A DNA stretch of 64,000 bases from a virus (lineage: Duplodnaviria > Caudoviricetes), in IMG/VR virus record IMGVR_UViG_3300044630_004720. One strand, given 5' to 3'. The position numbers and the translations under genes are program-made. Below, in pieces: positions 427 to 25,921 of this stretch. Below the pieces are notes generated by a model that was not told the origin of the DNA, searched no databases, and was given only the letters and a program-made list of their open reading frames with translations. The first letter of the stretch is position 1, and each line of letters begins with the position of its first letter.

Positions 427-2856
427 ATGAAAGTAAAGAAGAGAAACGGTGAATTAGAAGAGATGAGGTATGATAAAATCACTAAACGTATTAGTGCACT
501 ATGTGAAGACCTCAATATGGAGTATGTGGACCCAACATATATAACACTTAAGGTTACACAAGGAATTTATGATGGGATATCAACAATAGAATTAGATAGA
601 TTAGCGGCTGAAACTGCGGCATCAATGACTACAACTCATCCTGATTATGCAAAATTAGCAGGTAGGATTGCAGTATCTAATTTACACAAATCAACACCAA
701 GAAAATTCTCACAATGTATTAAGGAATTATATTCTTTTATTGAACCAAAAACAGGTAAAGAATCTACTTTAATTTCTGACGAAGTATACGAGTTCGTAAT
801 GGAAAATAAAGAAGTTATCGATGGAGCCATTGATATGAATAGAGATATGGATTTCGATTATTTCGGGTTCAAGACTTTAGAACGTTCATACCTATTAAAA
901 ATTGGTAATAGAATTGTGGAAAGACCACAATATATGTATATGAGAGTTGCCGTGGGTATTTGTAAAGGAGATGTAGAAATGGCTTTGAGAATCTATGATG
1001 ATTTATCACAACACTTTTACACACACGCTACCCCTACATTATTCAATGCGGGAACACGTAGAGCACAAATGTCATCTTGTTTCTTAATTGGAAATAAAGG
1101 TGATGACATCGATGGATTGTTTGACACAATTAAAGACGTTGCAAAGATTTCTAAGTGGGCTGGCGGTATTGGATTACACGTACACGATGTTCGTGCTAAA
1201 GGTTCTTATATTAAAGGAACTGGCGGAGAATCTGATGGTTTAATCCCAATGATGAAAACATATAATGAAGTCGCTCGTTGGATTAACCAAGGTGGTAAAC
1301 GTAAAGGTTCGTTTGCAATTTATCTAGAACCTTGGCACTCAGATGTATTTGATTTTATTGATTTAAGAAAGAATCACGGTAAGGAAGAAATGAGAGCAAG
1401 AGATTTGTTCTTAGCTATGTGGACTCCTGATTTATTTATGAAACGTGTTGAAGAAGACGGTGATTGGTCTTTATTCTCACCTGACGAAGCACCAGGTTTA
1501 TCAGATGCTTATGATAGTCCCGAAGACAAAGCTTTCACTCGTTTATATGAACAATATGAACAAGATGGTAAAGCGAGAAAAGTTGTTAAGGCGAGAAAGT
1601 TAATGGATGCAATATTAACAGCTCAAATTGAAACAGGAACACCATATATGTTATATAAGGACCCTGCAAACTATAAATCAAATCAAAAGAACTTAGGTAC
1701 GATTAAGTCATCAAACTTATGTACCGAAATTATTGAGTATAGTTCACCAACTGAACAAGCGGTTTGTAATCTAGCATCAATTGCATTACCAAAATATATT
1801 ATTGATGGTGAATTCAATCATCAATTATTGTATGAATACACATACCAAGTTGTTAAAAATTTAAACAATGTAATTGATTTGAATTTCTACCCAACAGAAG
1901 AAACAAAACGTTCTAACTTTAGACATAGACCGGTTGGTTTGGGTATCCAAGGATTGGCGGATGTATTTTGTATGTTAGGTTTACCATTCGAAAGTGAAGG
2001 TGCTGATAAATTACAAACAGAGATTTTTGAAACCATTTATTTTGCTGCCTTAACATCGTCCAAAGATTTATCCAAAACTTTTGGTCCATACGAGAGTATA
2101 GTGGGTTCCCCAATAGAAAAGGGAATATTCCAATATCAGGTATGGGACAAAACTGATAAAGATTTATCAGGTCGTTGGGATTGGAAATCATTAAGAAAAG
2201 AGGTCGTTAATTACGGAGTTAGAAACTCATTATTAGTTGCACCGATGCCGACAGCATCAACCGCACAGATTTTAGGTAACAACGAAGCGTTTGAACCATT
2301 CACCACTAATCTTTATCTTAGAAGAACATTAGGTGGAGAGTTTGTTGTAATTAACAAACACTTGGTTAATGACTTATTGAAAATAGGTATGTGGAGTGAT
2401 AGTATCAAAAACAAATTAATTTTTGAAAATGGTTCAGTTCAAAATATCCCTGAAATACCAACTGAGTTAAAAGAGATATATAAAACTGTTTGGGAAATGT
2501 CACAAAAGAGAATTCTCCAAATGGCGGCAAATAGGTCAGTTTTCATTGACCAATCCCAATCTTTGAATTTATTCATTGATAATGTGACCAAACCAAAATT
2601 ATTGGCAGCACATATCTACGGATGGAAATTAGGATTGAAAACAGGTATGTATTATTTAAGAACAAGAGCGGCGGTAGACGCAATCAAAACTTTAGGTGTT
2701 GATATTAGTGCCACACAAAAAATAGAAGGTTCGATTACCCAAACAACCCAAGCTCCGACCGCACCAACTAATTCAATTCATTTTGAACAAAATGAAACAG
2801 CGTTGAGTATGAAACCATCAGACTCACCGTTTGAATGTGAAGGTTGTGGTTCATAA
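427..2856 (+). CDS. nrdA: Ribonucleotide reductase class Ia alpha (R1) subunit with N-terminal ATP cone
   Basis: ATP cone (VKKRNG...DKITKRI), ATPTLFNAG, SSCFL, NLCTEI (thiyl Cys), VCNLAS, APMPTAST, GLKTGMYYLR and C-terminal CEGCGS. No intein or intron apparent. Confidence 0.98.
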   Translation: MKVKKRNGELEEMRYDKITKRISALCEDLNMEYVDPTYITLKVTQGIYDGISTIELDRLAAETAASMTTTHPDYAKLAGRIAVSNLHKSTPRKFSQCIKELYSFIEPKTGKESTLISDEVYEFVMENKEVIDGAIDMNRDMDFDYFGFKTLERSYLLKIGNRIVERPQYMYMRVAVGICKGDVEMALRIYDDLSQHFYTHATPTLFNAGTRRAQMSSCFLIGNKGDDIDGLFDTIKDVAKISKWAGGIGLHVHDVRAKGSYIKGTGGESDGLIPMMKTYNEVARWINQGGKRKGSFAIYLEPWHSDVFDFIDLRKNHGKEEMRARDLFLAMWTPDLFMKRVEEDGDWSLFSPDEAPGLSDAYDSPEDKAFTRLYEQYEQDGKARKVVKARKLMDAILTAQIETGTPYMLYKDPANYKSNQKNLGTIKSSNLCTEIIEYSSPTEQAVCNLASIALPKYIIDGEFNHQLLYEYTYQVVKNLNNVIDLNFYPTEETKRSNFRHRPVGLGIQGLADVFCMLGLPFESEGADKLQTEIFETIYFAALTSSKDLSKTFGPYESIVGSPIEKGIFQYQVWDKTDKDLSGRWDWKSLRKEVVNYGVRNSLLVAPMPTASTAQILGNNEAFEPFTTNLYLRRTLGGEFVVINKHLVNDLLKIGMWSDSIKNKLIFENGSVQNIPEIPTELKEIYKTVWEMSQKRILQMAANRSVFIDQSQSLNLFIDNVTKPKLLAAHIYGWKLGLKTGMYYLRTRAAVDAIKTLGVDISATQKIEGSITQTTQAPTAPTNSIHFEQNETALSMKPSDSPFECEGCGS

Positions 2857-2871
2857 GAGAAACCCCCCACT

Positions 2872-2901
2872 AAAACCCAACTTCGGTTGGGTTTTTTATT
2901 T
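2872..2901 (+). terminator. Intrinsic terminator after nrdA with a cUUCGg tetraloop
   Basis: Perfect 10-bp stem AAAACCCAAC-TTCG-GTTGGGTTTT followed by TTATTT. Confidence 0.9.
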
Positions 2902-2934
2902 ATTACCATTTTGGTATTGTTTATATTTATTGAT

Positions 2935-3390
2935 ATGGCGTTAACATCATATGGAATTGATTTTCCATTTAGAGATAGTAGATACGGTGAATATTTAAAA
3001 ACAACCGAATCCCCTCAAAGAGAGGTAAGAGCGAATATTATACACCTTCTTTTAACGAGAAAGGGGTCAAGATATTTTTTACCTGACTTTGGTACCAGAA
3101 TTTACGAGTATATTTTTGAACAAAATGATGTAGTGTCATTTGGACAAATCGAAGAAGAAATTAGGGAAGGGATTAGAAAATTTATACCAAACGTCGAAGT
3201 AAAATCATTGGAAATTATGTCAGCGGAGGATGACCCCGACCAAACAAAAACATATTCCCAAGATGAAGATGAAAGATTATTCAGGGTTTCAGATTATTCA
3301 AGTAAACCTTATACCGCTAAAGTGAAACTTGATTATACCGTAAATAACGGAGCATTTTCAGTTTCAGACTTTATAATTATTAACATATAA
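2935..3390 (+). CDS. Baseplate wedge protein, T4 gp25/GPW-like
   Basis: GIDFPF...NIIHLLLTRKGSRYFLPDFGTRIYEYIFE is a typical gp25 motif. Start moved to ATG 2935 because the ORF-track start at 2887 lies inside the terminator. Confidence 0.9.
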   Translation: MALTSYGIDFPFRDSRYGEYLKTTESPQREVRANIIHLLLTRKGSRYFLPDFGTRIYEYIFEQNDVVSFGQIEEEIREGIRKFIPNVEVKSLEIMSAEDDPDQTKTYSQDEDERLFRVSDYSSKPYTAKVKLDYTVNNGAFSVSDFIIINI

Positions 3391-3391
3391 G

Positions 3392-5221
3392 ATGGCAAAA
3401 GAAATATCATACGCAACCAGAGACTTTGCAGGATTAAGAGAAGAGTTGGTAACACTAACCAAAAAATATTATCCTGACCTAATAAGTAACTTTAACGACG
3501 CATCAATTTATTCTGTATTATTAGACTTAAATGCTGCGGTTGCTGATAACCTTCATTTTCATATAGATAGAGTTTGGCAAGAAACAATGTTGGACTTTGC
3601 TCAACAAAGACAATCATTATATCATATTGCTAAAACATATGGATTAAGAATACCTGGTTTAAGACCTTCAGTTGCGTTATGTGACTTTTCAATAAACGTA
3701 CCGGTTAGAGGTGATAAGGATGATGAAAGATATGAAGGTATTTTAAAATCGGGAGCTCAGGTTTCGGGAGGAGGACAAGTTTTTGAAACAATAGATGATA
3801 TTGATTTTTCAAGTCCATTTAATAGTAAAGGAGAACCAAATAGATTAAAGATTCCAAATTTTGATAATAACAACAAATTAGTTTCATATACCATAACAAA
3901 AAGAGAAGCTGTGGTAAACGGAACAACAAAAATATACAGAAGGGTAATTAATGAAATTGACCAAAAACCATTTTTAAAAATATTTTTACCTGAAAGAAAT
4001 GTGTTGGGTGTTGTCGGAATGATTCACAAATCAGGTACCAACTTCATATCGAACCCTACATACGATGAATTTAATGGTGACAATAAATGGTACGAAGTGA
4101 AGTCATTAATGGAAGATAGAGTTTTTATTGAAGACCCAACAACAGTATCAGATAGAGACAATTTTACGTCGGGAGATTATGTTAGAGTTGATAATAAATT
4201 TATATCAGAATACACACCCGAAGGATATTTTCATATAACTTTTGGTTCAGGTAATGTAGACCCAATGGATAATTTGGACAACTATATGAACGGAACAATG
4301 AAGGTTAACATATCAACTTTCTTGAATAACGTATCATTAGGAACAATTCCAAAACCTGGTACCACCCTGTTCATCAAATACAGAGTTGGTGGAGGTAAAG
4401 ACACCAATTTAGGGGTAAACGTGATTTCATCGATAGATACGATTGATTTTGCATTAAACGGACCTAATAGTTCAATTAACGACCAAGTATCACAATCCTT
4501 AAGTGTAACAAACATTACACCTGCGGTTGGTGGAGCTGATTCCCCAACAATCGAAGAAATTAGAGGAATGATAGCATATAACTTTGCAGCACAAAACAGA
4601 GCGGTTACACTCAATGACTATAAATCGTTAATTGAGACAATGCCATCAACTTATGGTGCACCGGCCAAGGTTAGTGTTATGGAAGAAGACAATAAAGTAA
4701 AAATAAAATTATTGTCTTATGATGATGAAGGTAATTTGACTGATATAGTATCCAATACTTTGAAACAGAATGTATTAAATTACCTATCTAAATTCAGAAT
4801 GTTAAATGATTATTTGGATATTGAAAGTGGTGAGGTTATTGACTTAGGTTTAGAAATTGATTTGGTTGTTAATAAAAATGAAAGTCAAAGTGACGTTCTT
4901 AAAGAAACAGTAAAAACCATAACAGGTTTCTTCGCAATAGACAAAAGAAAAATGGGAGACCCATTATTTGTTGGTGATTTGAAAAAAGAAATAGGTAATG
5001 TTAGTGGTGTGATAAACGTCGTTGATGTTAGAATTTTTAACAAAATCGGAGGAAAATATTCTTCAGCTGAAGTATCACAAACATACAAAGACAACATCAG
5101 TAAAGAGATTCTACAGTCAGACTCAACCATATATATGAAGTCAAATCAAATCTGTCAAATCAGATTCCCTCAAACGGATATTAAAGTGAGGGTAAAAACT
5201 CCAACTTCGACTACATACTAA
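3392..5221 (+). CDS. Baseplate wedge protein, T4 gp6 / baseplate-J-like
   Basis: YATRDFAGLREEL, DFAQQRQSLYHIAKTYG, YRVGGG, GGADSPTIEEIR, AQNRAVTLNDY. Follows gp25. Confidence 0.9.
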   Translation: MAKEISYATRDFAGLREELVTLTKKYYPDLISNFNDASIYSVLLDLNAAVADNLHFHIDRVWQETMLDFAQQRQSLYHIAKTYGLRIPGLRPSVALCDFSINVPVRGDKDDERYEGILKSGAQVSGGGQVFETIDDIDFSSPFNSKGEPNRLKIPNFDNNNKLVSYTITKREAVVNGTTKIYRRVINEIDQKPFLKIFLPERNVLGVVGMIHKSGTNFISNPTYDEFNGDNKWYEVKSLMEDRVFIEDPTTVSDRDNFTSGDYVRVDNKFISEYTPEGYFHITFGSGNVDPMDNLDNYMNGTMKVNISTFLNNVSLGTIPKPGTTLFIKYRVGGGKDTNLGVNVISSIDTIDFALNGPNSSINDQVSQSLSVTNITPAVGGADSPTIEEIRGMIAYNFAAQNRAVTLNDYKSLIETMPSTYGAPAKVSVMEEDNKVKIKLLSYDDEGNLTDIVSNTLKQNVLNYLSKFRMLNDYLDIESGEVIDLGLEIDLVVNKNESQSDVLKETVKTITGFFAIDKRKMGDPLFVGDLKKEIGNVSGVINVVDVRIFNKIGGKYSSAEVSQTYKDNISKEILQSDSTIYMKSNQICQIRFPQTDIKVRVKTPTSTTY

Positions 5222-5274
5222 ATTGTTTTTTAGTTATCTTATAAGAAATTGATAGAGTTTCTATTTATTATAAG

Positions 5275-8200
5275 ATGATACAAAAGCATAGAATTTATAC
5301 AAACATAGGTGAAGACCAGTATATCAAATTTGAAATAAAACAAGACTTTGATTTACTTGAGGTCTTATCTTTAAAAATGTCTCAAAGAGACGTTTATACA
5401 TCCCTTTGTGCCGATTATGGTGTTGTTTGCGGTAGACTAACAGTAAATAATGGATTCGGTGTCCCAAATGCAAGAGTATCTATATTCATTCCATTGGATG
5501 ATGACGATTCCGACGACCCTATAATTTCTGCATTATACCCTTACACAGACCTAACCGAAAAAGACGAAGATGGTTTTAGATATAATCTATTACCTGCCAG
5601 AAGACAACATAGTGGACACGCAGCCACAGGTACATTTCCGGACCAATCAGATATTCTTAATAGAGAAGAAGTTTTAGAGGTATTTGAAAAATATTATAAG
5701 TACACCGTAAGAACTAACGATGCGGGAGATTTTATGATTTGGGGGGTACCGTTAGGACAACAGACAATTGTTTGTGATGTTGACTTATCAGATATCGGGT
5801 GTTTTTCTTTAAGACCCGATGATTTTTTAAGACTTGGTTTTGGTGTTGATGATTTTAAAAACAAATATGAGTTTAAAGCATCAATGGATTTAGACTCATT
5901 ACCACAAATTAAAACATTTAGTAAAACAATTGAGGTATACCCATTTTGGGGTAATGAAGATTTATGTGAAATTGGGATTACAAGAACCGACTTTGATTTA
6001 TCAGACCAAGGAGTTAAGATAGAGCCGAAAGCTTACGTGATTGGTGGAACATATACTGAAGAAGGTAAAAAAGTAATCAATAGAAACTGTAGCGTCCCTA
6101 AAAATATGGGGAGAAAATGTGACCTTAAAACAAAAAAAGGTAAGATTGAGGCGATTAGATTTAAGGCGGAATATGATGCAAATGACAGACCAATCTTAGA
6201 ATTGTACGAAACAAACGAAGACATTCCTGAAGACGGTTCATTTATCATCTCAATTCCTATGAATATGGATTTTCTTTACACAAATGAGTTTGGTGAGAAT
6301 GAATATACAAATGACCCAAACAAAGGAATCCCAACATCCGCTTGTTATCGTTTTAGATTTTCATTATTAGATACGCCAACGGCAAGTTACTTAGCACCAA
6401 ACATTAGAGAATATCCAAATTACCTTAACCAACCACAAAGCCAATCATATGCTTGGTCATTAAATTATAAAGACTATCCATCACTTGCTCATAGTTTAAT
6501 ATTAAATAAAGTTGATGGATTTTATGTCCCACAAGATTATTTTTATCGTTTTAGTTATAATAAAGTTTATACTGTATCATCATTTCATAGTGCACAATAT
6601 AGAACAACGGGTCTATCAAGTAATAGAATTGTAGGGAGTAAGTTCGTTGGAATTAAAGATTTAGTTCCAAATGAACAAAATGAGTGCAATGATATTGCAG
6701 TTACTCCGCCTGTAAATTATGGATTTAGAAATTTTACATTCACATTATTAATTGCGGATGTTCTATTGTTTCTTGAACAGCTAGGTGTTAGTACGGGTTT
6801 GATTTTTAGTAATACCGTGGCTAAAATTTTTCACAGATTTGCAGATGCGGTTGATTTCTCTCCAATCAAAAAATTAAGTAAATCAATACGAAAATTTGCC
6901 TATGGTATACAAGATGGTGGACAAAGAGATTTATACTTGATTGAATATCCGTCTTGTCTTGAATGTAATAGAGACAATGAATATGGTACGTCCGGTGGTA
7001 GAGCGGGAGATGTTTCGGACTATTGCGTTGTTGGTACTGCACAAGTCGTAGGCTCAAGTAACGAAATGTCAAGAACATTAACTGTTAATAGTATTTCATT
7101 TGCAGTTGCAGACCCAATTATATGTTCAGGAGCAACGGCACCAACAGCTGTGTATTTTTATAATAATCAAACAGAATATTATATTAGTCACGGTGTTGAA
7201 GGTTATACTTTGGATGCAAGTACAAAGTTTGTTTCAGGAGCAACAATTACCTTTTTAGACCCCAACTCAATATTTCCCGATTCACAAACATATACTGTTG
7301 AAATTAGACAGAAAAGTGCATATGTCGGAACTGAGGAAGCTTTAGAAGAATTGGAAGAGGGATGTGAACTTTTTGATGTACCATATGATGAATCGGTAGT
7401 ACAATTATATTACACAAATACAGGAAGAACACCAACATCCCCGTCAATTAATGGAACTCCAACATATACTCCAGGTATGAATGTTCAGGCAACATTAATT
7501 TCTGATATCGCCCCCCGTAACTATCCATTATTATTAAATTATGAAGGGGACTCTTTTGTTCCGTTAACACCATCTGGTCAATCTGAATTTAAAAATGGAA
7601 TATTCACGATAATACCTGGTACATTAACGACAGGAAGAATTGTAAGAATAATGAGAGAATATAGAAAAAGAAGAAAGGTTGCTAAGATGTTTTGTGGAGG
7701 CGCTGTAAATTACTCTTTTGTTGATAATTGGTTATCTGGTTCATTATACTTTCCTCCATTTGAAATTAAAAGAAGAAAATATTGTGGTAATGTTGTTACA
7801 AAGGTAACTCAAACCAATATAAAAACGGGAGCACAAGAAGATATTTTCTATTATAAATCCGCCGCGTATAATGATGTTACTGGCGTGTGGGGTTCTACAA
7901 CATACAATACAAATAGAAGATTAAATAGACCAACAACTTTTGTCGATTTAGGACCAAGAGATGAGTTTATTAAAGAGATTTGTGTTGACCCTAATTTAGA
8001 CCCTAACTGTTCTGTTTCAAGAAACATCGGACCTACAACGTATAAAGATTTTGGTGAATTGTTAGGATTGGCAATTAATTATAGATTAGATGTTGGTCCA
8101 TATACTTTTGACTTTAACAATTTTTTTGATAACAATGGATACCCTTATTCAGGAGTAGGACATAAAGTTTTAGATGGTGATATTTTACAACTAATATCAA

Positions 8201-12600: not shown

Positions 12601-13512
12601 ATGGCAGTAGGTAGTTACGGAACAATAAGACCAGCAGATGTATCCCCAGCGGACGTTGATATTTTCTATCATTACGTTTCGGGAAGAACTGCCAGTGCTG
12701 AAGTTCAGTTCGAAAAATTAGATAATTCACAAGATATTTTGACCCCTGTATTCCATAATGCAAATACAGGAGGTAATGCCGATACTGAAATATTAGGTGG
12801 TTTGTATAACTTGAAATTAGAATCTTCACGATTCTCTGAATTAGGAATATATACACTTTACCTAAGACCAAAACAAATTAGAACCACGGTTTCGGATTGT
12901 GGTGTCTTATCGTCACTTCCTTCTGTTAGAGGTTTGGTAATTGATTTAAGTGTAATAGACCCCGCAGATAGAAATAAATTTACACCACAAGGATTGGTAG
13001 GGTATAGAATAGAATATTTGGACGCCGATTCGGGTGCAAAAATTCCTAATTTCTTTAGAATAGTTACATCATCCTTTTATTGTGAACCAATTACCTCAAA
13101 CTTAAGTAATTCATCACAAAAAGCAATTAGATACCGTTATTCCGATATTGCAACCAATTTAATGTTTTTAACATTAACACCAAGTTCATCACCAACTAGT
13201 AGACCCAACACCATTCCGTTTATTGGTCAACCGAACCAAAGTATCATTTTATCGAACACCTTTTTCAATCCTGTTATGTTAGAGATTGATATGGTAGAAC
13301 ACGACGCAACAACATTGGCACACGCACTTTACGGTAACCAAAGTAAGTCGGTTGAGGATGGTATTTACACGATTTATGACCAAAATAATAATATCTATAA
13401 GCAATTTAACTTATATGAAATCAAAGATGATGTTAATGAAACGTTATACGAAATTAGAGAAAAACGTGATAACATTGACGAATCATTAAATTTTGATGTT
13501 ATAACTGAATAA
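12601..13512 (+). CDS. Hypothetical virion/baseplate protein
   Basis: 303-aa ORF preceded by TATTTATA and coupled to the 2446-aa gene. Confidence 0.6.
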
Positions 13513-16500
13513 TGGCAACAAGGAAAGTCCCTAGTCAGGCGGCAAGTGGTGGTGAAACTTTTAATGACAAGCTGATTGGTCTACAGATTACAGACGGTAG
13601 TTCTCAGCTGGCTAACACCGCGTTCCTTATAGATAGAGTAATTCCAGAAAAAGACAGTAAGAATTTTTTAACCCAACCCTTTTCTGATTTTCTAACATTA
13701 GATACATTACAAGAAGAGACAAGTCAGATTTACGAAAATAACTCAACAAGTACTTCATTTGAAAGAAGTAAAAAGATTAAGTTTCACAATTCAAAATCTG
13801 ATGCGACAAAATCATTGTTTGGTTCTTTAAGTGTTAGGTTAAGTGTTGCAGTTTCAAATGTTATAGAAAAATATCCGGCAGCGATGTTAGTCGATGTTGA
13901 CTCTCCGGTGTCAACAACAAGTATCAGTGCTGAAGACATTTCATATGACGGTATTGCCAATACCACACAATTTAAATTTAAGAAGTCTTTAATTTACAAT
14001 CCGTTCGACATTGTTATACAACAACCAGAATCAGTTGTAATTTTAAATTCTAAAAACACATATAGAGATTTTTATTCTTCATATACAAAATATGTAATTG
14101 ATAATTTAAGCGGCTCAACCTATGAAATCTTATCTTATGATGAACCAGATAATAATGGTTACATTAATTTAAGAGTTTCAGGTAAGTGTTTTGCAAATAC
14201 AACGGGGTATACCGAAAATTATTTGATAAGACCAAATAATGGTGTTACTGAAGAATTTTTTAATAGTTTAGACGAACTAGAAACATCATTAGTCGATAGA
14301 GAATCATATCCAAAATACACCGCGTCATTTAGAATTCCAATGGATTTATATGACGGGGCGGTTAGTGAATTACAAACAGAAACCGCAACTTGGCCAATAT
14401 CTAGAGATGGATGGAACTTACAAATTATCGGTTTAGATTATGAATCTTACATTACAAGATTAAGTAACATTGGTAATATCGTTGATGATTACAAATCAAA
14501 TTTAATTATTAGATTTTTATCATCACCACAACTTTTCGAATTTGATACCGAAGAAAAAAAGGCGGAAGCAATTTTCCAACTTTATGGTCAAAGTTTTGAC
14601 AAGGTAAAAAAATTCATAGACAATATTGCTTATATGAGGAATGTTAGTTATGACAAAACTAACAATGTTCCTGATGTATTGTTAAAAAACCTATCCGAAA
14701 CTTTAGGATTATCAACAGTAAATTTATACGATGAGAAATCGTTACAGGATACCTTATACACAAGACATACACAACAATATGATGGTGTATTAACAGGATT
14801 AAACTTGTTAGAAGGTGAATATGAGTTTTATAGAAGATTAATTGTAAACTTAGCACATTTATATAAAACGAAAGGTACAAGGTTAGCCATTGAATTTTTC
14901 TTAAAGTTCATAGGTGCTCCTGAACCAATGATTAGGTTGGACGAATACATCTATAAAGTAGATGGATTATTACCAAAATCAACGTATGAGAATGACATCA
15001 GAGAAGTAATTTTAGGTGTTAAAGAATTCCATACGATGGAATTTGTTCCAACAACCACAACGATAAATGGTACAACATATTCAGCATACACATATCGATT
15101 AGTTACCACATCGGGTTCCACAACATTAACAAGAGACGAATATCCTGTTTATAGTGATGGAACACCAAAAGCAAAAAATAGTTTAGATGGTAGTCATTAT
15201 TTCGCTAAAGGTGCTGGTTGGTATAGAAAAACATTAGACCATAGGTCAATTGATATATTAGATACTGAAAATTCAGTTTTAACAGGAAATACTAAAGTAT
15301 TAAAAACCAAATCAAAACCGTTCACATATGGTGAAGATTATTTTAATGTTTATAGAAAATTACCCGGTTTAGATTATGGATACGATTTAAATGGAGAAAT
15401 CAATAATGATAAAACAGAAATTATTGATGATAGTGAAGTTGAACATATTTTAAATAGAAAAAATGTAAACATTTTCTTAGACGGTTCAAGAGCGATTGAC
15501 TATGACATCTACACAAAAAGTAGAAACTTAAGTTTAACATTTGGTACATTACCACCACAAGAAAAACCTTCTTTTGCTGAGTTTTTAAAGGAGGCAATTA
15601 GTAACGTTATTCGAAATTCTAATACTATTAAGTATAGAAAAGAGTATCGTTTATTAAAGAAGGTTTATGAAGACTATGCAAATAGTAATGGATTCACTCC
15701 ATACAACTATATTAAAATAAATGAATTCATTCAAAGAATGAGTCCATATTGGGTTAATATAATTGACCAATTTGTTCCTGCAACAACTCAATGGTTGGGA
15801 GGTAATTTAATTGAAAACGGAACATTCGGAAGGTCTAAATTTCAATACAAACAACCTTGTACACCAAAAGAATTTGTTGAAGTTCTATATCCTGATTTTG
15901 AAACTGTAATTGAAGAAGATTTAGAAACAATATTAGGAGGGGGTACAACAACATATGAAGCATCAAATTATGATAGTTTAAGGGGATTATCAATATTAAC
16001 TGGTTTAACATACACAATTTATTTAAGAATAAATGATGTTGAATTTAATCAGAGTACATCAGTTTTAAATGATGAGATATTTGGAACCGGTTTCACTTCA
16101 ACAGCATCTTGTCTTCCTTTAGTATATACGGGTTCAACATCAGGTATACCACTTATTTGTGGATATAAGGGTGACTATAGTAATAGTGATAGTACCGTAA
16201 ATGGAATTAATAATTGGCAGGGAATTAACTTAGATTTACCAACAATAAAAACTATTTGGAAAAATAGTTTAACAAGTTTGGTACAAAAAATTAACGATGG
16301 TTTAACGGGTTTAACTGAAAACAATACAATTACAAAAATCACATTTGATGATTATGGTTGTATTGATGAATATGCACCATATACCGCTCAAACAAATACT
16401 TCTAGTTGTAGGCAAGTCACAAAGAATTCATTATCCGTAAACTTTTTTATTGATACTGATGGTGTTGAGAAAGCTAAATTCATATTGGACACAACAGATT

Positions 16501-19500
16501 GTAGAAACGGTGAAGATATTGATTTTTACTTTGAACCAATCTATGGAATAAAAGAAGAAGAATGTGGTTTAAAGGTTGTTGCCGCAGGTCCTTGTATACC
16601 ATATAGTGGAGATATAGAAAACTGTCAATTAGTTGAAGATGTTTATATTTTCGTATCAGGTTTTACAGGTATTGAAGCGGACACTATATGGGATGTTAAT
16701 TTTTATATTACAAGTGGAACCACCTGTGATACTGGTGTATGCACCAATTGTGAGTTTATTGAAATAAATGACCCAAAACCAATACAAAGAGGGGTTAACC
16801 CATCTACATTAGCAGTACAAAATTGTGTAACTACAGGTGATGTTACAGGTAAAGTTTACGTTATACCGGCAGTTAAAGAAACCGATGTGTATGATATTAT
16901 AGTATCAGACGCATCAAACTGTGAACAGAAAATTAGAATAGAAGGATTACAAAGAAAAATTGTACAATTATCTGACGAAGTTAGTGGATACACAATTAAT
17001 CCTAAAGTACAATATAAAACATCATTTGATTATGGTTTAAAGAAAGGTAGTAAAGTATACAAATATGTAAGCAACGGAATACCAACAACTTGGAATGATT
17101 TACAAACACATATTCTTTCTGGTTACACGGTTGAAGTGTTAATAGACGACATTCAAATCGGTGATGTAATATTATCGATAGAACAAAAAGATTGTGGAGA
17201 ACTGCCATCAAACCTATTTAATTTTATTGATGACCAAGGATATCAATTTACGTTTGACTATAAATGGGTTACGGTTAATAGAAAAGAATGTTTCTCTTCT
17301 ATTAAGAAAGATATCATAAATGATGAATTTGAAATTTTACCAACTAGTAAAGTTTTAGTATACACTAATATTGATGAAAATTTACAACCAATTCCGTATC
17401 AATTTAAATTCAAACATCCTGAAGATTTATTTGTAAGACCCGAACAACCTGAAGAACCTTGTTGTGAATATCCTGAAAATTATTTTCAAAGTGGTGATTT
17501 CTTAATCAACCAATTTGGTTTTCCAATAGAAGTAACAAGTGTAGATTTAAATTATTGTGATAGAGGAATTTATTATACGTTGGTAACAACAAATGATGAA
17601 TTATCTACAAATAGCAATAACATTATTGTAAATGGTAAGTCAGGGGAGACAGACAGATTAATAGTTTCTTTCATTAATAATTCAAAACAAGACGGAACAT
17701 CAAGTTCATTTAAATTCGAATGTTTAGATATTGACATTGAGGAGTGGTACTATGGTTACATTTGTGATACGGGTAAAACAATAACAAGAGACATAGATTG
17801 TACTGATAGTGTTTGTTCACAATCACCAGTAAGTAGTAGTACCTGTGAGGCGTTTGTTGGTGAAATAACAACTCCTACACCTACCCCAACCCCAAGTCCT
17901 ACTCCAACACCGACCGCAACACCTACACCAACTGCAACTGCAACGCCGACTGTAACGCCAACGCCGACTGCTACGCCAACACCAACCGCAACGGGTACAC
18001 CAACACCTACACCAACTGCAACACCTACACCAACATCAACTCCTACCCCAACACCAACTGCAACAGGTACACCAACACCTACTCCAACCCCTACCTCAAC
18101 ACCAATATGTGATTTTGATATTGATGTGGTTGTAACATACACAACAGCGACACCAACTCCTACTCCTACGGCAACCCCTACACCTACCGCAACACCGGTT
18201 TGTGATTTTGATATTGATATTGTTGTGGCAACATCAACCCCAACCCCAACACCTACGCCAACACCAACACCAACTGCAACACCAATATGTGATTTTGATA
18301 TTGACATTGTTGTAGTAACAGCAACCGCAACCCCTACACCAACACCTACGGCAACAGGCACTCCAACTCCAACTCCGACCGCAACACCAGTTTGTGAGTT
18401 TGACATTGATGTTGTGGTAGTATTAGCAACTGCAACTCCTACACCAACACCGACAGCAACGTCTACACCAACACCGACACCTACTTCAACCCCAATATGT
18501 GATTTTGATATCGACGTGGATATATTAACATCTACGCCAACACCAACCCCAACCGCAACACCTACACCTACACCAACAGAGACTGGAACACCGACACCTA
18601 CACCAACATCTACTCCAATTTGTGAGTTTGATATTGATGTTGTAGTGGTAACATCGACTGTAACTCCCACACCAACAGCAACAAGTACACCAACCCCTAC
18701 ACCGACTCCAACGGTTGACCCTTGTATAGATTGTCCTGAAGGTTATGTATGGACATATGTTGGAGATGGAATTTGCACCTCAACTGATGTTGTATCTGCA
18801 ACTCCACCAACGTCATCATATACTGCGTTTGAAAGAAAGTACTTTGAGTACAGTATGAGTGGTACAACGGTTTATCAATCAGGTTGGAATATAAATGGTA
18901 CAGGTACATCACAAGTACAATTAAACACTGCAAATCTTTGGAAGAATACAACTGGAACGTCTCCAAGTAATCCAGGTAACGGACCATTAAACAGAACAGG
19001 GCTATGGGCAAATCTTGACACTGCGGACCCAATTGATTATCCATTACAAACGTGGTTAGGATTTAATGCTTGTATCACAGGATTTACAGGTGGATTATAT
19101 TATGTAGGTATTGGTGCCGATAACGAATTCAGATTAGAAGTTGATGGTGTTGTTGTGTTAGACACATTTGCCAATTCAGGTCTTAATGAGCTAGCTAAAT
19201 TTAGAACTTGGCACGTTTACCCTGTAACATTAAGTGCGGGAGACCACATCATTGGATTGTATGGTTATAACTTATTAGGAAATCAAACGAATCCAGCAGG
19301 ATTTGGTTGTGAAATATATGATAACACATTAGCAGAATTAACAGGAGCAACATCAGTAAACGATTTGAATATCGTGTTCACCTCAACAGACTTTATTGGT
19401 GATATTATCCCTGTTGTTAAAGATGTAAATGGTGTTTATTTAGCGTCAGGATATACTTGTCCAACAGGATATGAATACGCACAATGTACAGGAAATTGTT

Positions 19501-20852
19501 GGAAGACAATATATTGTCCTGATAATACTACACCAACTCCTACACCAACCGTAACACCAACTCCTACAGAGACCGGAACACCAACACCTACGCCGACACC
19601 AACTGATACGGGTACACCAACACCAACGCCAACGGCAACTCCTACTCCAACTCCTACACCAACTGCAACACCGGTTTGTGAATTCGGAATTGAGGTAATT
19701 GTTATACCGGCGACACCAACCCCTACACCTACCGCAACACCAACCCCTACACCTACTGAAACAGGTACCCCAACTCCAACCCCAACGTCGACTCCAATAT
19801 GTGAGTTCGATATTGATGTCGTTGTGGTACAACCAACAAGTACACCTACACCGACCGCAACTCCGACTTCAACGCCAACACCTACACCAACCGATACCGC
19901 AACACCAACACCTACCCCTACATCTACAATAGATTGTACGTTTGAAGCGTCATTCACAGAATATTTCGAATCAACACCAACACCAACACCTACCCCAACA
20001 CCAACAATCACACCGATATGTTGTGTATCAGGAGTTACATTAAATGTAACAGACCCAGGATGGATTAAATTTAAACTATGTGACGGAACGGATGAATATC
20101 GTGAATACACTACTACAGGTACTAAAGTTATCACCGAATGTATTCAACAAAATAGTGTTGCGGTTGGTGTACCATACGCTGACTTAGCCGCGTTCACAGT
20201 TAGTGGAGGAGGTACAAATTGTGGAGGAGATTGTCCTCCGGCAATTGTGATTGATGAGAACACAAAAATTAACATATTCTTTGATAGTTCGGGTTCTATG
20301 AACGACACGTTACCACCATTACAAACAATGAGAAATTCAACATTGAAGAATTGTTTATTACCATTCTATAATAACAATAGTGCAAAATATGATAGTTTAG
20401 TAACAATTACATCATATCCGAATGAAAGAACATTTTTTTGGTTAACAACAACTAGTGGAACCACTACAAATGTTTCAAAAGTTATAAACCTTGTGTTTAC
20501 TGATGAAAACTCACCATACGGAGCTGGTCAAGAACACACAACTCAATGGAATACAAGAACATCAGACTATAACACAGATATGTCTCTGTTAAGAAGTGTT
20601 TTAAATCGTACACCTAATTCAGAATATTATAGAGCAATAATTTTTAGAGTACAGGGATATAACGTATTCAGTAATTTCTTAACAGCAGTATTCAATGGTA
20701 CGGGTTCATACTCAGGAACGAATGGATTGTCTGATAAAACTAATATGGTAAGTTTTATTCCAAATGTAACAGCGGCATCGACAGCTCAATATTACACAAA
20801 CCAAATAATAAGTGCAATTAATACTTTAGGATATAACTTAAGTCCGTGTTGA
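13512..20852 (+). CDS. Giant baseplate/tail protein: P2 gpI-like wedge domain, degenerate Hint-fold segment, Pro-Thr stalks, PA14-like domain, C-terminal vWA-like domain
   Basis: [15 protein letters not shown]...[24 protein letters not shown] (gpI-like, ~14660-14905). [16 protein letters not shown]...[10 protein letters not shown] (PA14-like). [11 protein letters not shown] (vWA MIDAS DxSxS, from ~20265). Long (PT)n tracts. Confidence 0.7.
17871..18716 (+). repeat. Pro-Thr low-complexity array with six P[IV]C[DE]FDID[VI] nodes
   Basis: Degenerate (ACN CCN)n codon repeats interrupted about every 35-45 aa by the conserved Cys-containing strand. Confidence 0.95.
19530..20012 (+). repeat. Second Pro-Thr array with C[ET]F nodes
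   Basis: [24 protein letters not shown] and IDCTFEASF separated by (PT)n. Confidence 0.9.
19629..19711 (+). repeat. 83-bp direct repeat, copy 1 (1 mismatch versus 21202-21284)
   Basis: ccaacggcaactcctac[t/a]ccaactcctacaccaactgcaacaccggtttgtgaattcggaattgaggtaattgttataccggc, aligned by eye. Confidence 0.9.
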
Positions 20853-20871: not shown

Positions 20872-22356
20872 ATGGCAAGATATTTTTACATATTAATTAC
20901 AGGAGGAACATCATCAGGACCTTACTCTGCGTATTATGATACTGTGAGTTCTTCTAACTATGCCACAAAAATCAGCACAAATTTACCCGCAACTGGTATG
21001 ACATATAATGATTTGACAACAGGTCAAGGAGTTAATGTATCGATACCAGACGGAAGTACTTCAATTATTTTATATAATGAATTATGTAATAGTGATATTA
21101 CTTTAATATTCCCAACACCAACCCCAACCCCTACACCTACGGCAACAGGTACACCGACCCCTACACCGACAGTAACACCAACTGAAACTCCAGAACCTAC
21201 ACCAACGGCAACTCCTACACCAACTCCTACACCAACTGCAACACCGGTTTGTGAATTCGGAATTGAGGTAATTGTTATACCGGCAACTCCAACCCCAACA
21301 CCAACACCTACTAACACATCAACCCCAACTCCAACCCCAACACCAACGGATACAGCCACTCCAACCCCAACTCCTACTAACACCCCTACGCCTACACCAA
21401 CTAACACCCCAACTCCTACACCGACCGCAACACCAATATGTGAGTTTGGAATTGACGTTGTGGTAATACCTGCAACTGCTACACCAACACCTACACCAAC
21501 TGCAACACCTACGAATACACCAACCGCAACACCAACACCTACACCTACGGCGACACCAACTGATACACCAACACCTACGCCGACACCGACCGCAACACCT
21601 ACTAACACTCCTACGCCAACACCAACTAACACCCCAACTCCTACACCAACTGCAACACCAATATGTGAATTTGGAATTTATGTTACTGTAATACCAGCAA
21701 CTGCAACTCCTACGCCAACACCTACGAATACACCAACACCAACACCTACTAACACTCCTACACCTACACCTACGGCGACTCCAACAGATACGCCTACACC
21801 GACACCTACGGCGACTCCAACAGATACGCCTACACCAACACCAACTAACACTCCAACTCCTACACCTACGGCCACTCCGACATCAACACCAACACCATTA
21901 CCTTGTGTGGCTGAAATTACAAATGTAAGTAATCCAACAAGTTGTGGTAACAATATTGATGGTTCATTCACATTAACATCTTCAGGTGGTGTTTGGAATA
22001 GAACTTATGAACTATTTAAAGATAGTTCGTTCCCATATGAAACAACTGGAGGTATCTCAATTCAAACTTGGACTGACGTAACAGAATTTGGTAAAAATAT
22101 TTCAGTTACAGGATTAGAACCAGGTGGATACTATTTGAAAATTACAGATGTTGGTGGATGTGTTGATTACAGTGAAGTTGTGGTATTACCATTCGATGAT
22201 ACACCTTGCGTCACACCAACACCTACGCCATCAGTACAATACTGTTATACGGACGGAAATGGTATAGTACAAGGACCATTCTCGACATTACAAGAATGTA
22301 CAGCGAATTCTGGCGCTAGAGTATGTGAACAATGTGTTGGTGAACCAATAACTTAA
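20872..22356 (+). CDS. Pro-Thr-rich virion appendage protein with an SprB-like repeat and a Cys-rich C-terminal module
   Basis: (PT)n with PxCEFGI nodes. [18 protein letters not shown]...[18 protein letters not shown] resembles an SprB repeat. Ends YCY...GPFSTLQEC...CEQCVGEP. Confidence 0.65.
21112..21897 (+). repeat. Pro-Thr array with three P[IV]CEFGI nodes
   Basis: Same architecture as the arrays in the upstream gene. Confidence 0.95.
21202..21284 (+). repeat. 83-bp direct repeat, copy 2
   Basis: Same codon phase as copy 1 (both begin with CCA, Pro). Confidence 0.9.
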
Positions 22357-22457
22357 AAGTATATGTCGAAGAGCTCAGATTGTTTGTACACAATTTGAAG
22401 TTTAAGACTTTAGAATAATAATAAAAAATAAGATATTTATATAGAAACCAAACAGAA

Positions 22458-22919
22458 ATGAAAAATCAAAAAGGAGGATGTTTAATCCAAGGAACTTTAA
22501 TTACATTATCCGATGATACCACCAAGTCAATAGAAAACATTGAAGTGGGTGATATTGTAAAATCAATGGTATATGACAGTGAAACAAGTGGATTCACAGA
22601 AACAACAGGAACAGTTGTTGAATTACAACAAGTTGAAGCCACTGTAGTGTTTTCATTGAACGAAGGTTTAATAACTGTGTCAGAAGACCATAAAAATATT
22701 GTAAAGCAATCAGAATCAGGAAATATTGTTGTAACAGAAACTGAATTTGTTTCTGTAGGTGACAAATTATTTGACATAAACGGAGCAGAAGTTGAAATTA
22801 CAAGTAAAGATGAAATTGAAACACCTCAAACTGTTTATAACATCGTTGTAGATAATACACATAGTTTCTTTGCCAATAATATTTTAACACATAATCAAAT
22901 TCTACCAACAGAAGAATAA
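22458..22919 (+). CDS. Stand-alone Hint (bacterial intein-like, BIL-type) domain protein
   Basis: Block A CLIQGTLITLSD...IENIEVGDIV, block B ITVSEDH, block F/G VYNIVVDNTHSFFANNILTHN. Only 7 aa of flank on each side (MKNQKGG / QILPTEE). Confidence 0.88.
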   Translation: MKNQKGGCLIQGTLITLSDDTTKSIENIEVGDIVKSMVYDSETSGFTETTGTVVELQQVEATVVFSLNEGLITVSEDHKNIVKQSESGNIVVTETEFVSVGDKLFDINGAEVEITSKDEIETPQTVYNIVVDNTHSFFANNILTHNQILPTEE

Positions 22920-22932
22920 ATTTTAAAACAAT

Positions 22933-23619
22933 ATGTTAGTAACATTTTATTTATCAGGACCATATTCATCAACAACAGTATCAAGTAAATTTACGATTGT
23001 TGGTAACCCGGGTGCGGAAACATTTACGGGAGTAACTAAAACACAATTGTTAACGGGACATTCGTTAACTTTCTCAGAATCGGTAACGGGTGGTACAGTA
23101 ACAACAACCGAACCTGAAACTTGCGTTGGTACAGTTGTTAACTGGTTTGTTGAACCACAAACAACCCCAACCCCAACCCCAACTCCAACACAAACACAAG
23201 GAGATGGATATTGTTACAGCTATGAAGTTAGTGATACTGTAAATCAAAATAATTATGGTGTAAGATATACTGACCCTAACGTTGGTACAAGTCAAGATGT
23301 TAAATTTGATATGTTAATGGGAATTGATGATAATGGTTTCACAACATTTAACATATGTAGTACTGTTGACCCAACATTGTTAGATTACACAATAGCACCA
23401 CCTAACCCTACTGGCGTTGGTTCAGTACCTGGCGTGGCACGTTTTGGTGGTCTTACTCCTTGTACATCATCTCTTGGTTGTACATCATCATCAGGACCTG
23501 AATACTGTTATGTGAATGGACAATCTGTAGTAGTGGGACCATTCTCTACATTACAAGAATGTCAGGACGCTGCAGGTTCGTTTATATGTAGCCAATGTTT
23601 TGGTGAACCAGAACCTTAA
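22933..23619 (+). CDS. Cys-rich virion appendage protein with a short PT linker
   Basis: Shares the C-terminal YCY...GPFSTLQEC...C.QC.GEP module with 20872-22356. Confidence 0.6.
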   Translation: MLVTFYLSGPYSSTTVSSKFTIVGNPGAETFTGVTKTQLLTGHSLTFSESVTGGTVTTTEPETCVGTVVNWFVEPQTTPTPTPTPTQTQGDGYCYSYEVSDTVNQNNYGVRYTDPNVGTSQDVKFDMLMGIDDNGFTTFNICSTVDPTLLDYTIAPPNPTGVGSVPGVARFGGLTPCTSSLGCTSSSGPEYCYVNGQSVVVGPFSTLQECQDAAGSFICSQCFGEPEP

Positions 23620-23715: not shown

Positions 23716-25263
23716 ATGGGATTGGTAATCAAATTAAATAACATTATTTCACCAAATGCATTTACGGTTTCATATAAAACGGGACCAAATCCTTATCCGT
23801 TGGATTCAGGATTTACTCCGTATGGTGGAACGTATGGTGCAGGAACAACATTGGTTGTTGTTAGTGGTATAACTATTAATTTTAATAGTTCGTATTGGTT
23901 TAAAATTACCGATAATGTTACGAATAGATATATTATTGAAAATGTTGAGACAAACGACCCAATAGCATATATGAGTTGTTGTCCGATACCGGTGGACCCA
24001 ACCGCAACTTGTTATCACGAATGTTATCCACCGTCAAATGTGGATGCAGATTGTACTGGAATATTATCAACCCCTACACCAACAGCAACACCTACACCAA
24101 CAGCAACTCCTACACCAACTCCTACACCAACCCCTACACCAACAGCAACCGTGGAGGGACCAACACCAACACCTACCGTAACACCAACTCCTACACCAAC
24201 TGCAACTGCAACACCTACTCCGACCCCTACCCCTACATTGAATATTGTTGACCCTGAAGACCCTACTGTTTATTACTACTATGCAATGGGTGATTGTAAT
24301 GATATGAGATACGCGGGTACCGAAACAACTGTTTTTGGTTTCGGAGCACCAATGGTGGTTCCTGTTTGTATGACCTCCGCACAAATTACTCAATGGTACT
24401 CTACAGCTAATTTTGCACAACAAACGTTAAGTATTGATTACGATGACCCTTGTGCTTTTGGTGAAGGTTATTCAGGTGTAACAGTTGGTAGAAGTACAAC
24501 ACAATTAACAGAAGGAACCGTTTATCTTGTTGATAACCAATGTTTATCTGTTATTTCTGTTAATGAACAATACGTTGGACAATGGGGTGTTGATTTAGAT
24601 AATAGAACCCCAATAGGTGGTAGTAATCCTTGTGGGGCTTGTGACCCACCATTCACTGGTTATACATTAACAGGATATAGTGGTGTGACTTGCGATACAG
24701 GTGAAAATATCCTTGCGGTATCAATACTTGGTAGTTTAGTGGTGGGTAATGAATATGGAATACAATTGTATAGTGGAAATACCCCTATGGGTGATGCTAG
24801 ATGTATGACCATCAACGCCAATCTCGGTCCTCAACTTACTCTTACAGACCCAATAAATAATCCATATTCAGGATATCATATCACAGATGGAGGACCATTT
24901 GAATTAGGACAACCAATGTTCCAAGGATATACAGATTGTGGAACCTGTAATGCCGTACCTAAAAAATATAAAATAGATGGAGTAAGGTGTGACAACTCTC
25001 AATATAGTGTAACTGTATGGTCAGATACATTACCAACAATTGGAATTAATGATACGTTTAGAGTTAATGATTCATTCTTAAACACATTCTGTTGGAAGGT
25101 AACTGCAAAAGATAATTATAAAACAGTAGTATATGGATATCCTGAATATAACATTTTGGATACAGGATGTTCACCTTGTGATGGGTCGGCACCGATAACA
25201 CCGACTCCTATCCCAACTGATGATGGAGGTAGTGGAGGAAGCTCAGGAGGATACGGCGGTTAA
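23716..25263 (+). CDS. Cys-rich virion appendage protein with a PT linker and repeated modules ending in CxxC
   Basis: Modules end in CGAC, CGTC and CSPC. (PT)n linker and Gly-rich tail. Confidence 0.6.
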
Positions 25264-25276
25264 AAAAATTAAATAT

Positions 25277-25921
25277 ATGGGAACATTTAATAGAGAAGCT
25301 AATTTAAACGATAGTATTTTTTTTCAAAGAGGAGTTGTTAAATCAACAAATCATTGGACAAGACCATCGTATCAAAAAGTCTATGATTTTTTATTTAATT
25401 TATATCTTAAATCGACAATCATTAAAGATTATGATGTTTATTTAATGGGAGGAGTTTTATTTGATTTCAATAACACTTGGGATTTAGATATGTGTCTTGT
25501 TGGTGGTAACCACACTGATGAAAAAATAGAAAAAGATTTAAATTTTATGATGGATATGGGATTAAATCAATTTAATCTATTATTAGATGTCACTTGGTAT
25601 GAACAAAGACCATCCAATTTAAGATATGACCAAATGGTTGAAAACGAGTTTAAACCAGACAATATTATTCACAAAAAAATAGGATATACCAAAAAACAAA
25701 TTAATAATGAATTTGAAGAAAAAGATTTAAGAAATGACCCAAACTTTATTTTATTGAGTGACTATTTGGTTCAAGGAAATTATGGAGTAAATGGTAGACA
25801 TACCGAAAAAATGATAAATAAAGTTCAAAATAACACGAAACCGGAAACAATAACAACATTTAGTGTTATGGATTTTTTAAAAGAAAATGAAAGTTATTTC
25901 CATTCTAACACAAATAGATAA
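25277..25921 (+). CDS. Putative nucleotidyltransferase (Pol-beta superfamily, minimal type)
   Basis: YLMGG-x9-DLDMCL matches hG[GS]-x9-13-DhD. A third Asp occurs in LLLDVTW. Start set to ATG 25277, just after the upstream stop. Confidence 0.6.
   Translation: MGTFNREANLNDSIFFQRGVVKSTNHWTRPSYQKVYDFLFNLYLKSTIIKDYDVYLMGGVLFDFNNTWDLDMCLVGGNHTDEKIEKDLNFMMDMGLNQFNLLLDVTWYEQRPSNLRYDQMVENEFKPDNIIHKKIGYTKKQINNEFEEKDLRNDPNFILLSDYLVQGNYGVNGRHTEKMINKVQNNTKPETITTFSVMDFLKENESYFHSNTNR

Follow-up and report, generated by a model that had tools for sequence, protein, structure and literature searches.

A free-standing bacterial intein-like gene under purifying selection in a tailed phage of lake waters

Where Hint domains have been described, they belong to larger proteins, namely inteins, Hedgehog proteins, bacterial intein-like (BIL) proteins and pretoxin modules. 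The 64,000-nucleotide stretch of tailed-virus DNA (Duplodnaviria; Caudoviricetes) held as IMG/VR record IMGVR_UViG_3300044630_004720, hereafter the window, carries a Hint domain as a small gene of its own, and this locus raises the question of what use a self-processing domain can be when it has nothing to process, given that the bare BIL has long been kept under selection with its thioester site intact. The data point very strongly to an autonomous, selected BIL gene, and whichever explanation of its function is preferred, a free Hint core in fibre or baseplate assembly or a thioester used in trans, the biology of the phage tail module involved would be new.

An earlier note on this DNA, made from the letters of the window, had described a stand-alone Hint gene of the form MKNQKGG|C...SEDH...HN|QILPTEE, in which Cys1, the block-B His and the terminal His-Asn are intact, the +1 residue is Gln and a homing endonuclease is absent; the translation of the open reading frame (ORF) agrees exactly with this description. 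The nucleophile, Cys8, directly follows residues M1-G7, His78 and His145-Asn146 are in place, the residue after Asn146 is Gln (Gln or Glu in the orthologues), the flanks amount to seven residues on each side and no more, and no homing endonuclease was detected in the window Hint. Some other meanings of the two short flanks were considered and rejected: a lipoprotein signal at Cys8 is ruled out by the missing hydrophobic stretch before this residue, a double-glycine bacteriocin leader by the length of seven residues, which is too short, and by the absence of the consensus, and an LPxTG sortase motif in ILPTEE by its lack of conservation (ILPEVT in one subclade).

Of the Pfam models, PT-HINT (PF07591) alone passes its threshold, scoring 30.6 bits where 27.7 are required; intein and Hint models match less well. 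The AlphaFold model, obtained with an alignment of 65 sequences (A2; 11 stand-alone and 54 embedded), has a pLDDT of 89.6 and a pTM of 0.84, with low confidence only at residues 1-4 and 149-153, and shows the horseshoe-shaped, all-beta Hint fold, with a Foldseek probability of 1.00 to more than 50 solved inteins, BILs and Hedgehog (Hog) domains. The best Foldseek matches in the PDB are the BIL2 domain of Tetrahymena BUBL1 (6Y75/6TMM; E 5e-12, TM 0.79, 28% identity) and then the Clostridium thermocellum BIL (2LWY; E 5.5e-10), followed by mini-inteins and Hedgehog (1AT0, E 5.8e-6), and the family profile gives the same order, with E-values of 2.8e-28 for BIL2, 3.9e-24 for the C. thermocellum BIL and 4e-20 for UmbC (8W20). 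The features by which the Hint superfamily is recognised, a nucleophile at position 1 and the block-B T/S-x-x-H, are present as Cys8 and S75-x-x-H78, both invariant in the clade. Because BIL2 and 2LWY head both the structural and the profile comparisons, and because the domain ends in His-Asn with no Cys, Ser or Thr at +1, the window Hint is an A-type BIL domain, which departs from the type in that its nearest relatives are embedded in variable host proteins and the window Hint is not. A canonical intein would have Cys, Ser or Thr at +1 and a conserved insertion site in a host protein, and the window gene has neither; nor does it behave as a homing element, its core of about 139 residues leaving no room for an insert and its syntenic position being stable across loci. 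The pretoxin-HINT class is reached in terms of the Pfam threshold, but only QILPTEE follows Asn146 and a toxin domain is missing; in place of the ubiquitin-like N-extein with Gly-Gly of the BUBL type there is a heptapeptide, ending in GG in the window and in KG in three relatives (L001, L002 and P0010); and the sterol-recognition region of the Hog type is lacking, the protein stopping seven residues past the Hint core.

The orthologues, collected by a word-index search, from IMG/VR and by one metagenome scan, comprise about 20 distinct stand-alone genes from lake metagenomes, which are 47-99% identical to the window Hint and form one clade. All complete members have a seven-residue leader with Gly at -1 (MKNQKGG, MKNQNGG, MSNKKGG, MSTKKGG, MKNNQKG, MKTNQKG or METNQKG). 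Across the 11 aligned sequences, Cys8, Ser75, His78 and Asn146 are invariant, as are I148 and P150 of the tail, with L149 in 10 of the 11 (L028 reads QILIAE); position +1 holds Gln, with Glu in one subclade, acidic residues come after the [Q/E]-I-L-P, and block F position 135 varies between H, Q, Y and N. The conservation of the KGG|C junction, which the earlier note had proposed as a check, is therefore partial in its outcome: Gly -1 and the length of seven residues are fixed, whereas the sequence is variable and the GG at -2/-1 is replaced by KG in one subclade, that of L001, L002 and P0010. As read from the sequences, the window-type and L001-type leaders apparently differ by one inserted and one deleted codon, with the length kept. 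Within the window-type subclade and between L001 and L002, the ratio dN/dS lies at 0.04-0.23, with dS up to about 1.2, and comparisons across the two subclades, for which dS is close to saturation, give 0.27-0.57; the stand-alone Hint clade is under purifying selection. The mosaic gene at L036 (110-625) is of the window-subclade type in its N-terminal half and of the L001 type in its C-terminal half and tail, which indicates recombination inside this gene. Searches of 50,697 GenBank phage records by tblastn and blastn returned no orthologue, only short matches to the inteins of T4-like UvsX and helicase, and PHROGs has no family for stand-alone Hints, only weak matches to phrog_5707, phrog_8337 and phrog_21587.

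The origin of the gene is seen in its relatives, 2473 of which were found in a search of 1.84 billion representative proteins; nearly all are Hint domains within larger proteins, many of them in tandem or at the extreme C-terminus. In 257 aligned related domains, position 1 is Cys in 256, the last residue Asn in 254, the penultimate residue His in 235 and the T/SxxH motif is found in 219, with Gly at -1 in 104 and Lys at +1 in 146. Tandem Hint units of the family are connected by HN|KGG(G)C, and since KGG|C is thus the ordinary inter-domain linker of the family, it is not a special, ubiquitin-like ending. In the tree, the stand-alone clade with the seven-residue leader (SH-aLRT 99-100) is nested in a well-supported group of embedded BILs, and on this evidence it is derived from embedded phage BILs; one BIL unit, together with its KGG|C linker and a short tail, would have been turned into a separate gene. 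The nearest embedded relatives are small, Cys-rich phage proteins with Pro-Thr linkers and the BIL near the end, followed by K, KP, KIAPPIE, KLVPPGIV, QKLPPEN or a Cys-rich peptide of 30-50 residues. The tail of the window Hint, QILPTEE, resembles the embedded tails KIAPPIE and QKLPPEN, but without Lys at +1 or +2. Such a Lys is present in 47 of the 54 embedded domains (33 of 33 in the sister group) versus none of the 11 stand-alone ones, and the penultimate His in 51 of 54 versus 5 of 11. So frequent a Lys among the embedded domains suggests that phage fibre-cap BILs may resolve their thioester in cis through the amine of this lysine, and Lys +1/+2 after His-Asn provides a testable rule at the level of the family. 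Many embedded BIL proteins, among the A2 relatives and at loci L038-L104, stop one or two residues past the Asn (…HN-K-stop).

The embedded relative P0043 adjoins genes for a T4-type portal, prohead protease and gp23, and in more distant T4-like loci (L003-L008) the BIL is carried behind a poly-glycine linker by BACON-domain proteins of about 750-830 residues, encoded directly upstream of a homologue of the 2446-residue protein of the window. In two of them (L003:8213-10708 and L007:8225-10705) the BIL lies between a BACON body of about 590 residues, with poly-Gly, and a C-terminal SDRRLKKNI segment that resembles the intramolecular chaperone of tail spikes (Peptidase_S74 18.5 bits, below the cut-off of 22). 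A fission partner for the Hint was not found when the passenger parts of 150 related proteins were compared by BLAST with the window ORFs, and a likeness between the N-terminal domain of P0044 and that of the downstream 228-residue protein was not detectable. Two further lineages have independent and intact stand-alone Hints, with leaders of three and five residues (L041, MID|C…HN|AKTK; L082, MKYSH|C…HDN), and retain Cys1 and the terminal Asn as well; several Hint-fold phage proteins of 128-172 residues, uncharacterised so far, are found in the BFVD too. On the marine contig L041, the stand-alone Hint (5200-5640) is situated four genes downstream of a gene (1159-3408) for a 749-residue protein that begins with an ATP-grasp-like part and ends in two tandem Hints, and a 496-residue ATP-grasp-like protein encoded in a relative's genome (G001, L023:583-2073) has a Hint without Cys1 and the end …HN|TCWCPWNYCGHWCNSWYCPSCSNTPLPKL.

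The claim that the gene has its own motif has held up, the promoter-like TATTTATA being found inside a conserved upstream block, AAGACTTTAGAATAATAATAAAAAATAAGATATTTATATAG. This block of about 40 nucleotides is near-identical at nine of nine stand-alone loci, including L001 and L002, whose protein is 47% identical. The motif TATTTATA, the reverse complement of the T4 late-promoter TATAAATA, is not above chance in total number in the window (13 observed versus 11.4 expected). It does mark gene starts on the coding strand: 12 of the 13 copies are on that strand (p 0.003), and eight of these 12 are followed by an ORF start at a distance of 10-32 nt (p 3e-12). The Hint gene is covered by contigs of four metatranscriptome libraries. 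One contig begins at 22402, before the motif, another at 22460, and a third runs from 22452 to 23322 and bridges the Hint gene into the downstream gene; the contigs leave 21920-22340 uncovered, although missing cover proves nothing. These starts are a weak hint of a transcript beginning behind TATTTATA, as contigs cannot prove transcription. The Hint gene is an autonomous late gene with its own conserved promoter block. Shine-Dalgarno sites are generally missing from the window genes, and the AGGAGG within the leader codons directly abuts an out-of-frame ATG, with no spacing.

The explanation preferred here, with a moderate degree of confidence, is that of an orphaned but selected BIL that would form an N-terminal thioester, shed its leader and act together with the co-transcribed fibre gene. 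An N-S acyl shift at Gly7-Cys8 would make the thioester, the formation of which is still to be expected given the intact N-terminal apparatus (Gly-1, Cys8 and S-x-x-His78), and the seven-residue leader would then be shed to water or a thiol, leaving the Hint core with an N-terminal cysteine. The reaction at the C-terminal side appears relaxed or lost, because the family Lys at +1/+2 is missing and His145 is replaced by Tyr in half of the clade; the conserved and predicted-disordered Q/E-I-L-P tail probably stays attached as a docking motif. The protein may be an accessory or minor component that helps to assemble or mature the baseplate or the fibre protein transcribed with it. In general, BIL domains lack a nucleophile at +1 and for the most part yield products of N- and C-cleavage (PMC7664689; PMC7765530), and they reside in hypervariable proteins (PMC7765530). 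Several points weigh against the shedding reading: about 23-45% of the positions in the clade vary little or not at all, so that the conservation of three catalytic residues is only modest evidence of activity; it is hard to see what would be gained by shedding a heptapeptide; gene order and co-transcription are the only grounds for a role in the fibre or baseplate; and the strictly fixed leader length of seven residues is left unexplained, as it is by every other reading. The chemistry could be unusual, conservation being the sole argument for this so far.

A protein that has kept the Hint fold and given up its chemistry, serving as a building block or adaptor in the baseplate or fibre or as a chaperone for the downstream fibre protein, its catalytic residues being retained for folding or for historical reasons, is unlikely, even if it agrees with a good part of the data. 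Purifying selection acts across the whole fold, the tail is conserved yet predicted to be disordered, in the manner of a docking motif, the pairing with a fibre-like gene is conserved, and the C-terminal catalytic apparatus is partly decayed. Nevertheless, Cys1 is dispensable for the fold and is invariant in the clade and in the two independent stand-alone lineages, and loss of catalytic residues, as expected of idle copies, is what is seen in a possible decayed Hint of the 2446-residue protein. The latter, as indicated by three weak signals in a consistent order (hhalign probability 52%, E 1.4e-4, over the C-terminal 52 columns; BLAST with P0100, E 0.009, over the N-terminal part; and a profile match in the L001 orthologue of the protein, E 0.0055), has none of the catalytic residues, and its AF2 model, from a three-row alignment, has a pLDDT of 30.6. 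A complex prediction for the Hint protein with residues 1-78 of the 228-residue protein scored 0.01 (mark 0.32), which is uninformative both ways.

Peptide donation, in which an amine acting in trans would resolve the Gly7-Cys8 thioester and MKNQKGG would be placed on a lysine of the virion or host in the manner of BIL2, or in which the leader would be cyclised, is improbable. The closest solved homologue, BIL2, is reported to form isopeptides between K(epsilon-NH2) and a C-terminus on several substrates and without ATP (PMC8616854, section 2.4), the +1/+2 Lys in cis is gone from the clade and the thioester-forming residues remain, so that an external nucleophile must resolve any thioester, and the leader has exactly seven residues with an invariant Gly -1 in about 20 orthologues. 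Candidate acceptors would be lysines of the co-transcribed fibre protein, of other virion proteins or of host proteins. Against this, the ubiquitin-like MKNQKGG tag of the earlier note is weakened to the point of being unlikely by the ordinary linker nature of KGG|C, by the variable leader sequence with its change of GG to KG in one subclade, and by the unrelated leaders (MID, MKYSH) of the independent stand-alone Hints; the richness of the leader codons in A may be no more than the usual composition of a translation start. If true, this would be an ATP-independent and enzyme-free phage system for peptide tagging, analogous to BUBL conjugation in ciliates.

It is a little more improbable still that the gene is a by-product of fibre-gene shuffling, either a leftover BIL cassette or a recombination island that would aid the exchange of the downstream fibre gene, which is variable. 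BILs are found in hypervariable proteins and are proposed to promote variability (PMC7765530, citing Amitai 2003); the L036 gene combines parts of both subclades, the downstream gene ends in either of two alternative domains and the upstream neighbours vary. Nevertheless, the dN/dS values of 0.04-0.23 show selection on the protein itself, and frame, start and promoter are intact at every locus. Finally, a mis-called gene, whose true protein would be longer because translation began further 5', changed frame or arrived by bypass from the upstream fibre gene, as might be imagined from the distant relatives with the domain as the C-terminal part of proteins of about 750-830 residues behind a glycine linker, is largely refuted and deserves hardly any credence, since an in-frame TAA (22422-22424) stands 12 codons 5' of the Hint ATG with no in-frame start codon between the two, the same ATG and seven-residue leader recur in every complete orthologue, the promoter block separates the two genes, the upstream gene is a different one or on the opposite strand in L010 and L012, and the 494-residue gene ends naturally, in a Cys-rich terminus like that of its downstream paralogue, so that the Hint is not a displaced piece of this neighbour and the doubt about its start or frame that the earlier note had allowed for is removed.

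The window has a G+C content of 33.8% and carries genes for ribonucleotide reductase, primase, an exonuclease and an SbcC-like protein; its DNA is present in many lake-water metagenomes, and blastn against the same 50,697 GenBank records gave no DNA match. The neighbours of the Hint gene encode very large and small, Cys-rich proteins with Pro-Thr linkers, one of them with an Fn3-like domain. The tail-appendage operon proposed for this region is a reasonable inference from the context of a baseplate and fibre module and from the conservation of the gene there, without an annotation to that effect, and the comparison of gene context among related phages bears out the association, the same small fibre-like gene being found directly downstream at all loci. 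The gap between the Hint gene and this downstream gene carries no TATTTATA motif, and the two are probably co-transcribed. The 228-residue protein consists of a conserved N-terminal domain of about 75 residues and a Pro-Thr linker, its relatives carry either of two unrelated C-terminal domains, and its own C-terminus is …CSQCFGEPEP; a Cys-rich motif of about 40 residues, YCY…GPFSTLQEC…CxQCxGEP, is common to the 228-residue protein of the window type and the 494-residue protein (22230-22356). The 494-residue gene ends 101 nt before the Hint ATG, and in L010 and L012 its place is taken by another gene or by one on the opposite strand. The C-terminal part of the 2446-residue protein, as read from the translation, includes a vWA-like segment with a MIDAS-type D-S-S-G-S motif, for which Pfam gives no match. 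Among the other products of the fibre cluster, a small protein (25220-25921) is 98.6% identical to its L001 orthologue, and the flanking fibre genes are 55-88% identical. The coordinates of all features are collected in the table.

Table. Position and support of the features of the Hint locus and its surroundings in the window
Feature	Position	Strand	Support or remark
Hint ORF	22458..22919	+	153 aa; ORF call and translation
N-extein leader MKNQKGG, 7 residues	22458..22478	+	Length and Gly -1 fixed in every complete orthologue; sequence variable
BIL/Hint core Cys8-Asn146	22479..22895	+	Pfam PT-HINT, AF2 model, Foldseek and profile matches to BIL2 (6Y75/6TMM) and 2LWY
Block B S75-E-D-H78 (family T/S-x-x-H)	22680..22691	+	S75 and H78 invariant in 11/11 stand-alone; H78 in 54/54 embedded
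Block G His145-Asn146	22890..22895	+	Asn invariant; Tyr for His in 6/11 stand-alone
C-terminal stub QILPTEE and stop codon	22896..22919	+	Tail residues 22896-22916; [Q/E]-I-L-P clade-wide
Conserved upstream block AAGACTTTAGAATAATAATAAAAAATAAGATATTTATATAG with promoter-like motif	22404..22445	+	Near-identical at nine stand-alone loci
TATTTATA, late-promoter-like motif	22434..22441	+	24 nt from first base to Hint ATG
Further TATTTATA sites	12583, 25935, 27085, 29332, 38770, 47957, 53839	+	Examples among 12
Upstream fibre-like gene, 494 aa, independent gene	20872..22356	+	Cys-rich terminus; neighbour differs in L010, L012
Downstream fibre-like gene, 228 aa	22933..23619	+	13-19 nt after the Hint gene at all loci
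Possible decayed Hint-like segment, about aa 1211-1377 of the 2446-aa protein (13512-20852)	17142..17642	+	Three weak signals, consistent order
gp6-like baseplate wedge protein	3392-5221		Hint gene downstream of the wedge gene

In relation to known systems, literature searches on stand-alone, free-standing or orphan Hints or BILs, and on Hint or BIL domains in phage tail fibres, brought up nothing relevant; the remark of the earlier note that it knew of no described phage system like this one has to be qualified by the reported conjugation activity of BIL2 and by the other small stand-alone Hint-fold phage proteins in the BFVD and in metagenomes. If active, the protein would be a very small and naturally minimal BIL, and a possible tool for protein ligation or thioester generation. 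With the A-type BILs (Amitai 2003; Dassa 2004; 2LWY) the window Hint has in common the Hint fold, Cys1, T/S-x-x-H, His-Asn, the lack of a +1 nucleophile and a setting among hypervariable, surface-type proteins, and differs from them in having no host protein and in being phage-encoded, as well as in the loss of the penultimate His in half of the clade and of the +1/+2 Lys. BIL2 of Tetrahymena thermophila BUBL1 (6Y75, 6TMM), whose thioester is reported to be resolved by a lysine amine in an ATP-independent conjugation of the GG-ended N-extein (PMC8616854), is the best structural and profile match, with Gly-Gly before residue 1 in the crystallised construct; however, its N-extein is a folded ubiquitin-like domain and a second such domain follows, whereas the window Hint is flanked by heptapeptides and has no downstream lysine, and the Zn-binding His125 of BIL2 aligns, as read from the alignment, with clade position 135, which is not conserved. 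The uncharacterised C-terminal BIL caps and tandem arrays on adhesin- or fibre-like phage proteins belong to the same subfamily, with Gly-rich or KGG linkers and short tails, and lie in a module of this kind in aquatic phages related to T4, but combine a passenger of 100 to more than 2000 residues with His-Asn followed by Lys, neither of which is found in the window gene. The pretoxin-HINT modules (PF07591; UmbC 8W20) are alike in the Pfam match and in the profile E-value of 4e-20, and unlike in that the window Hint has no toxin domain, secretion-related N-terminal region or immunity gene. Hog domains carry out only the N-S acyl shift, after which the N-terminal part is passed to an external nucleophile; they share the Hint fold with the window protein (1AT0, E 5.8e-6), at about 13% identity, but the latter has no sterol-recognition region and no signalling passenger. 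Lastly, the phage mini-inteins (gp41-1, 6QAZ) are similar in size, fold and blocks A, B and G, and the window gene differs in having no +1 Cys, Ser or Thr, no insertion in a conserved host protein, no homing endonuclease and no empty allele.

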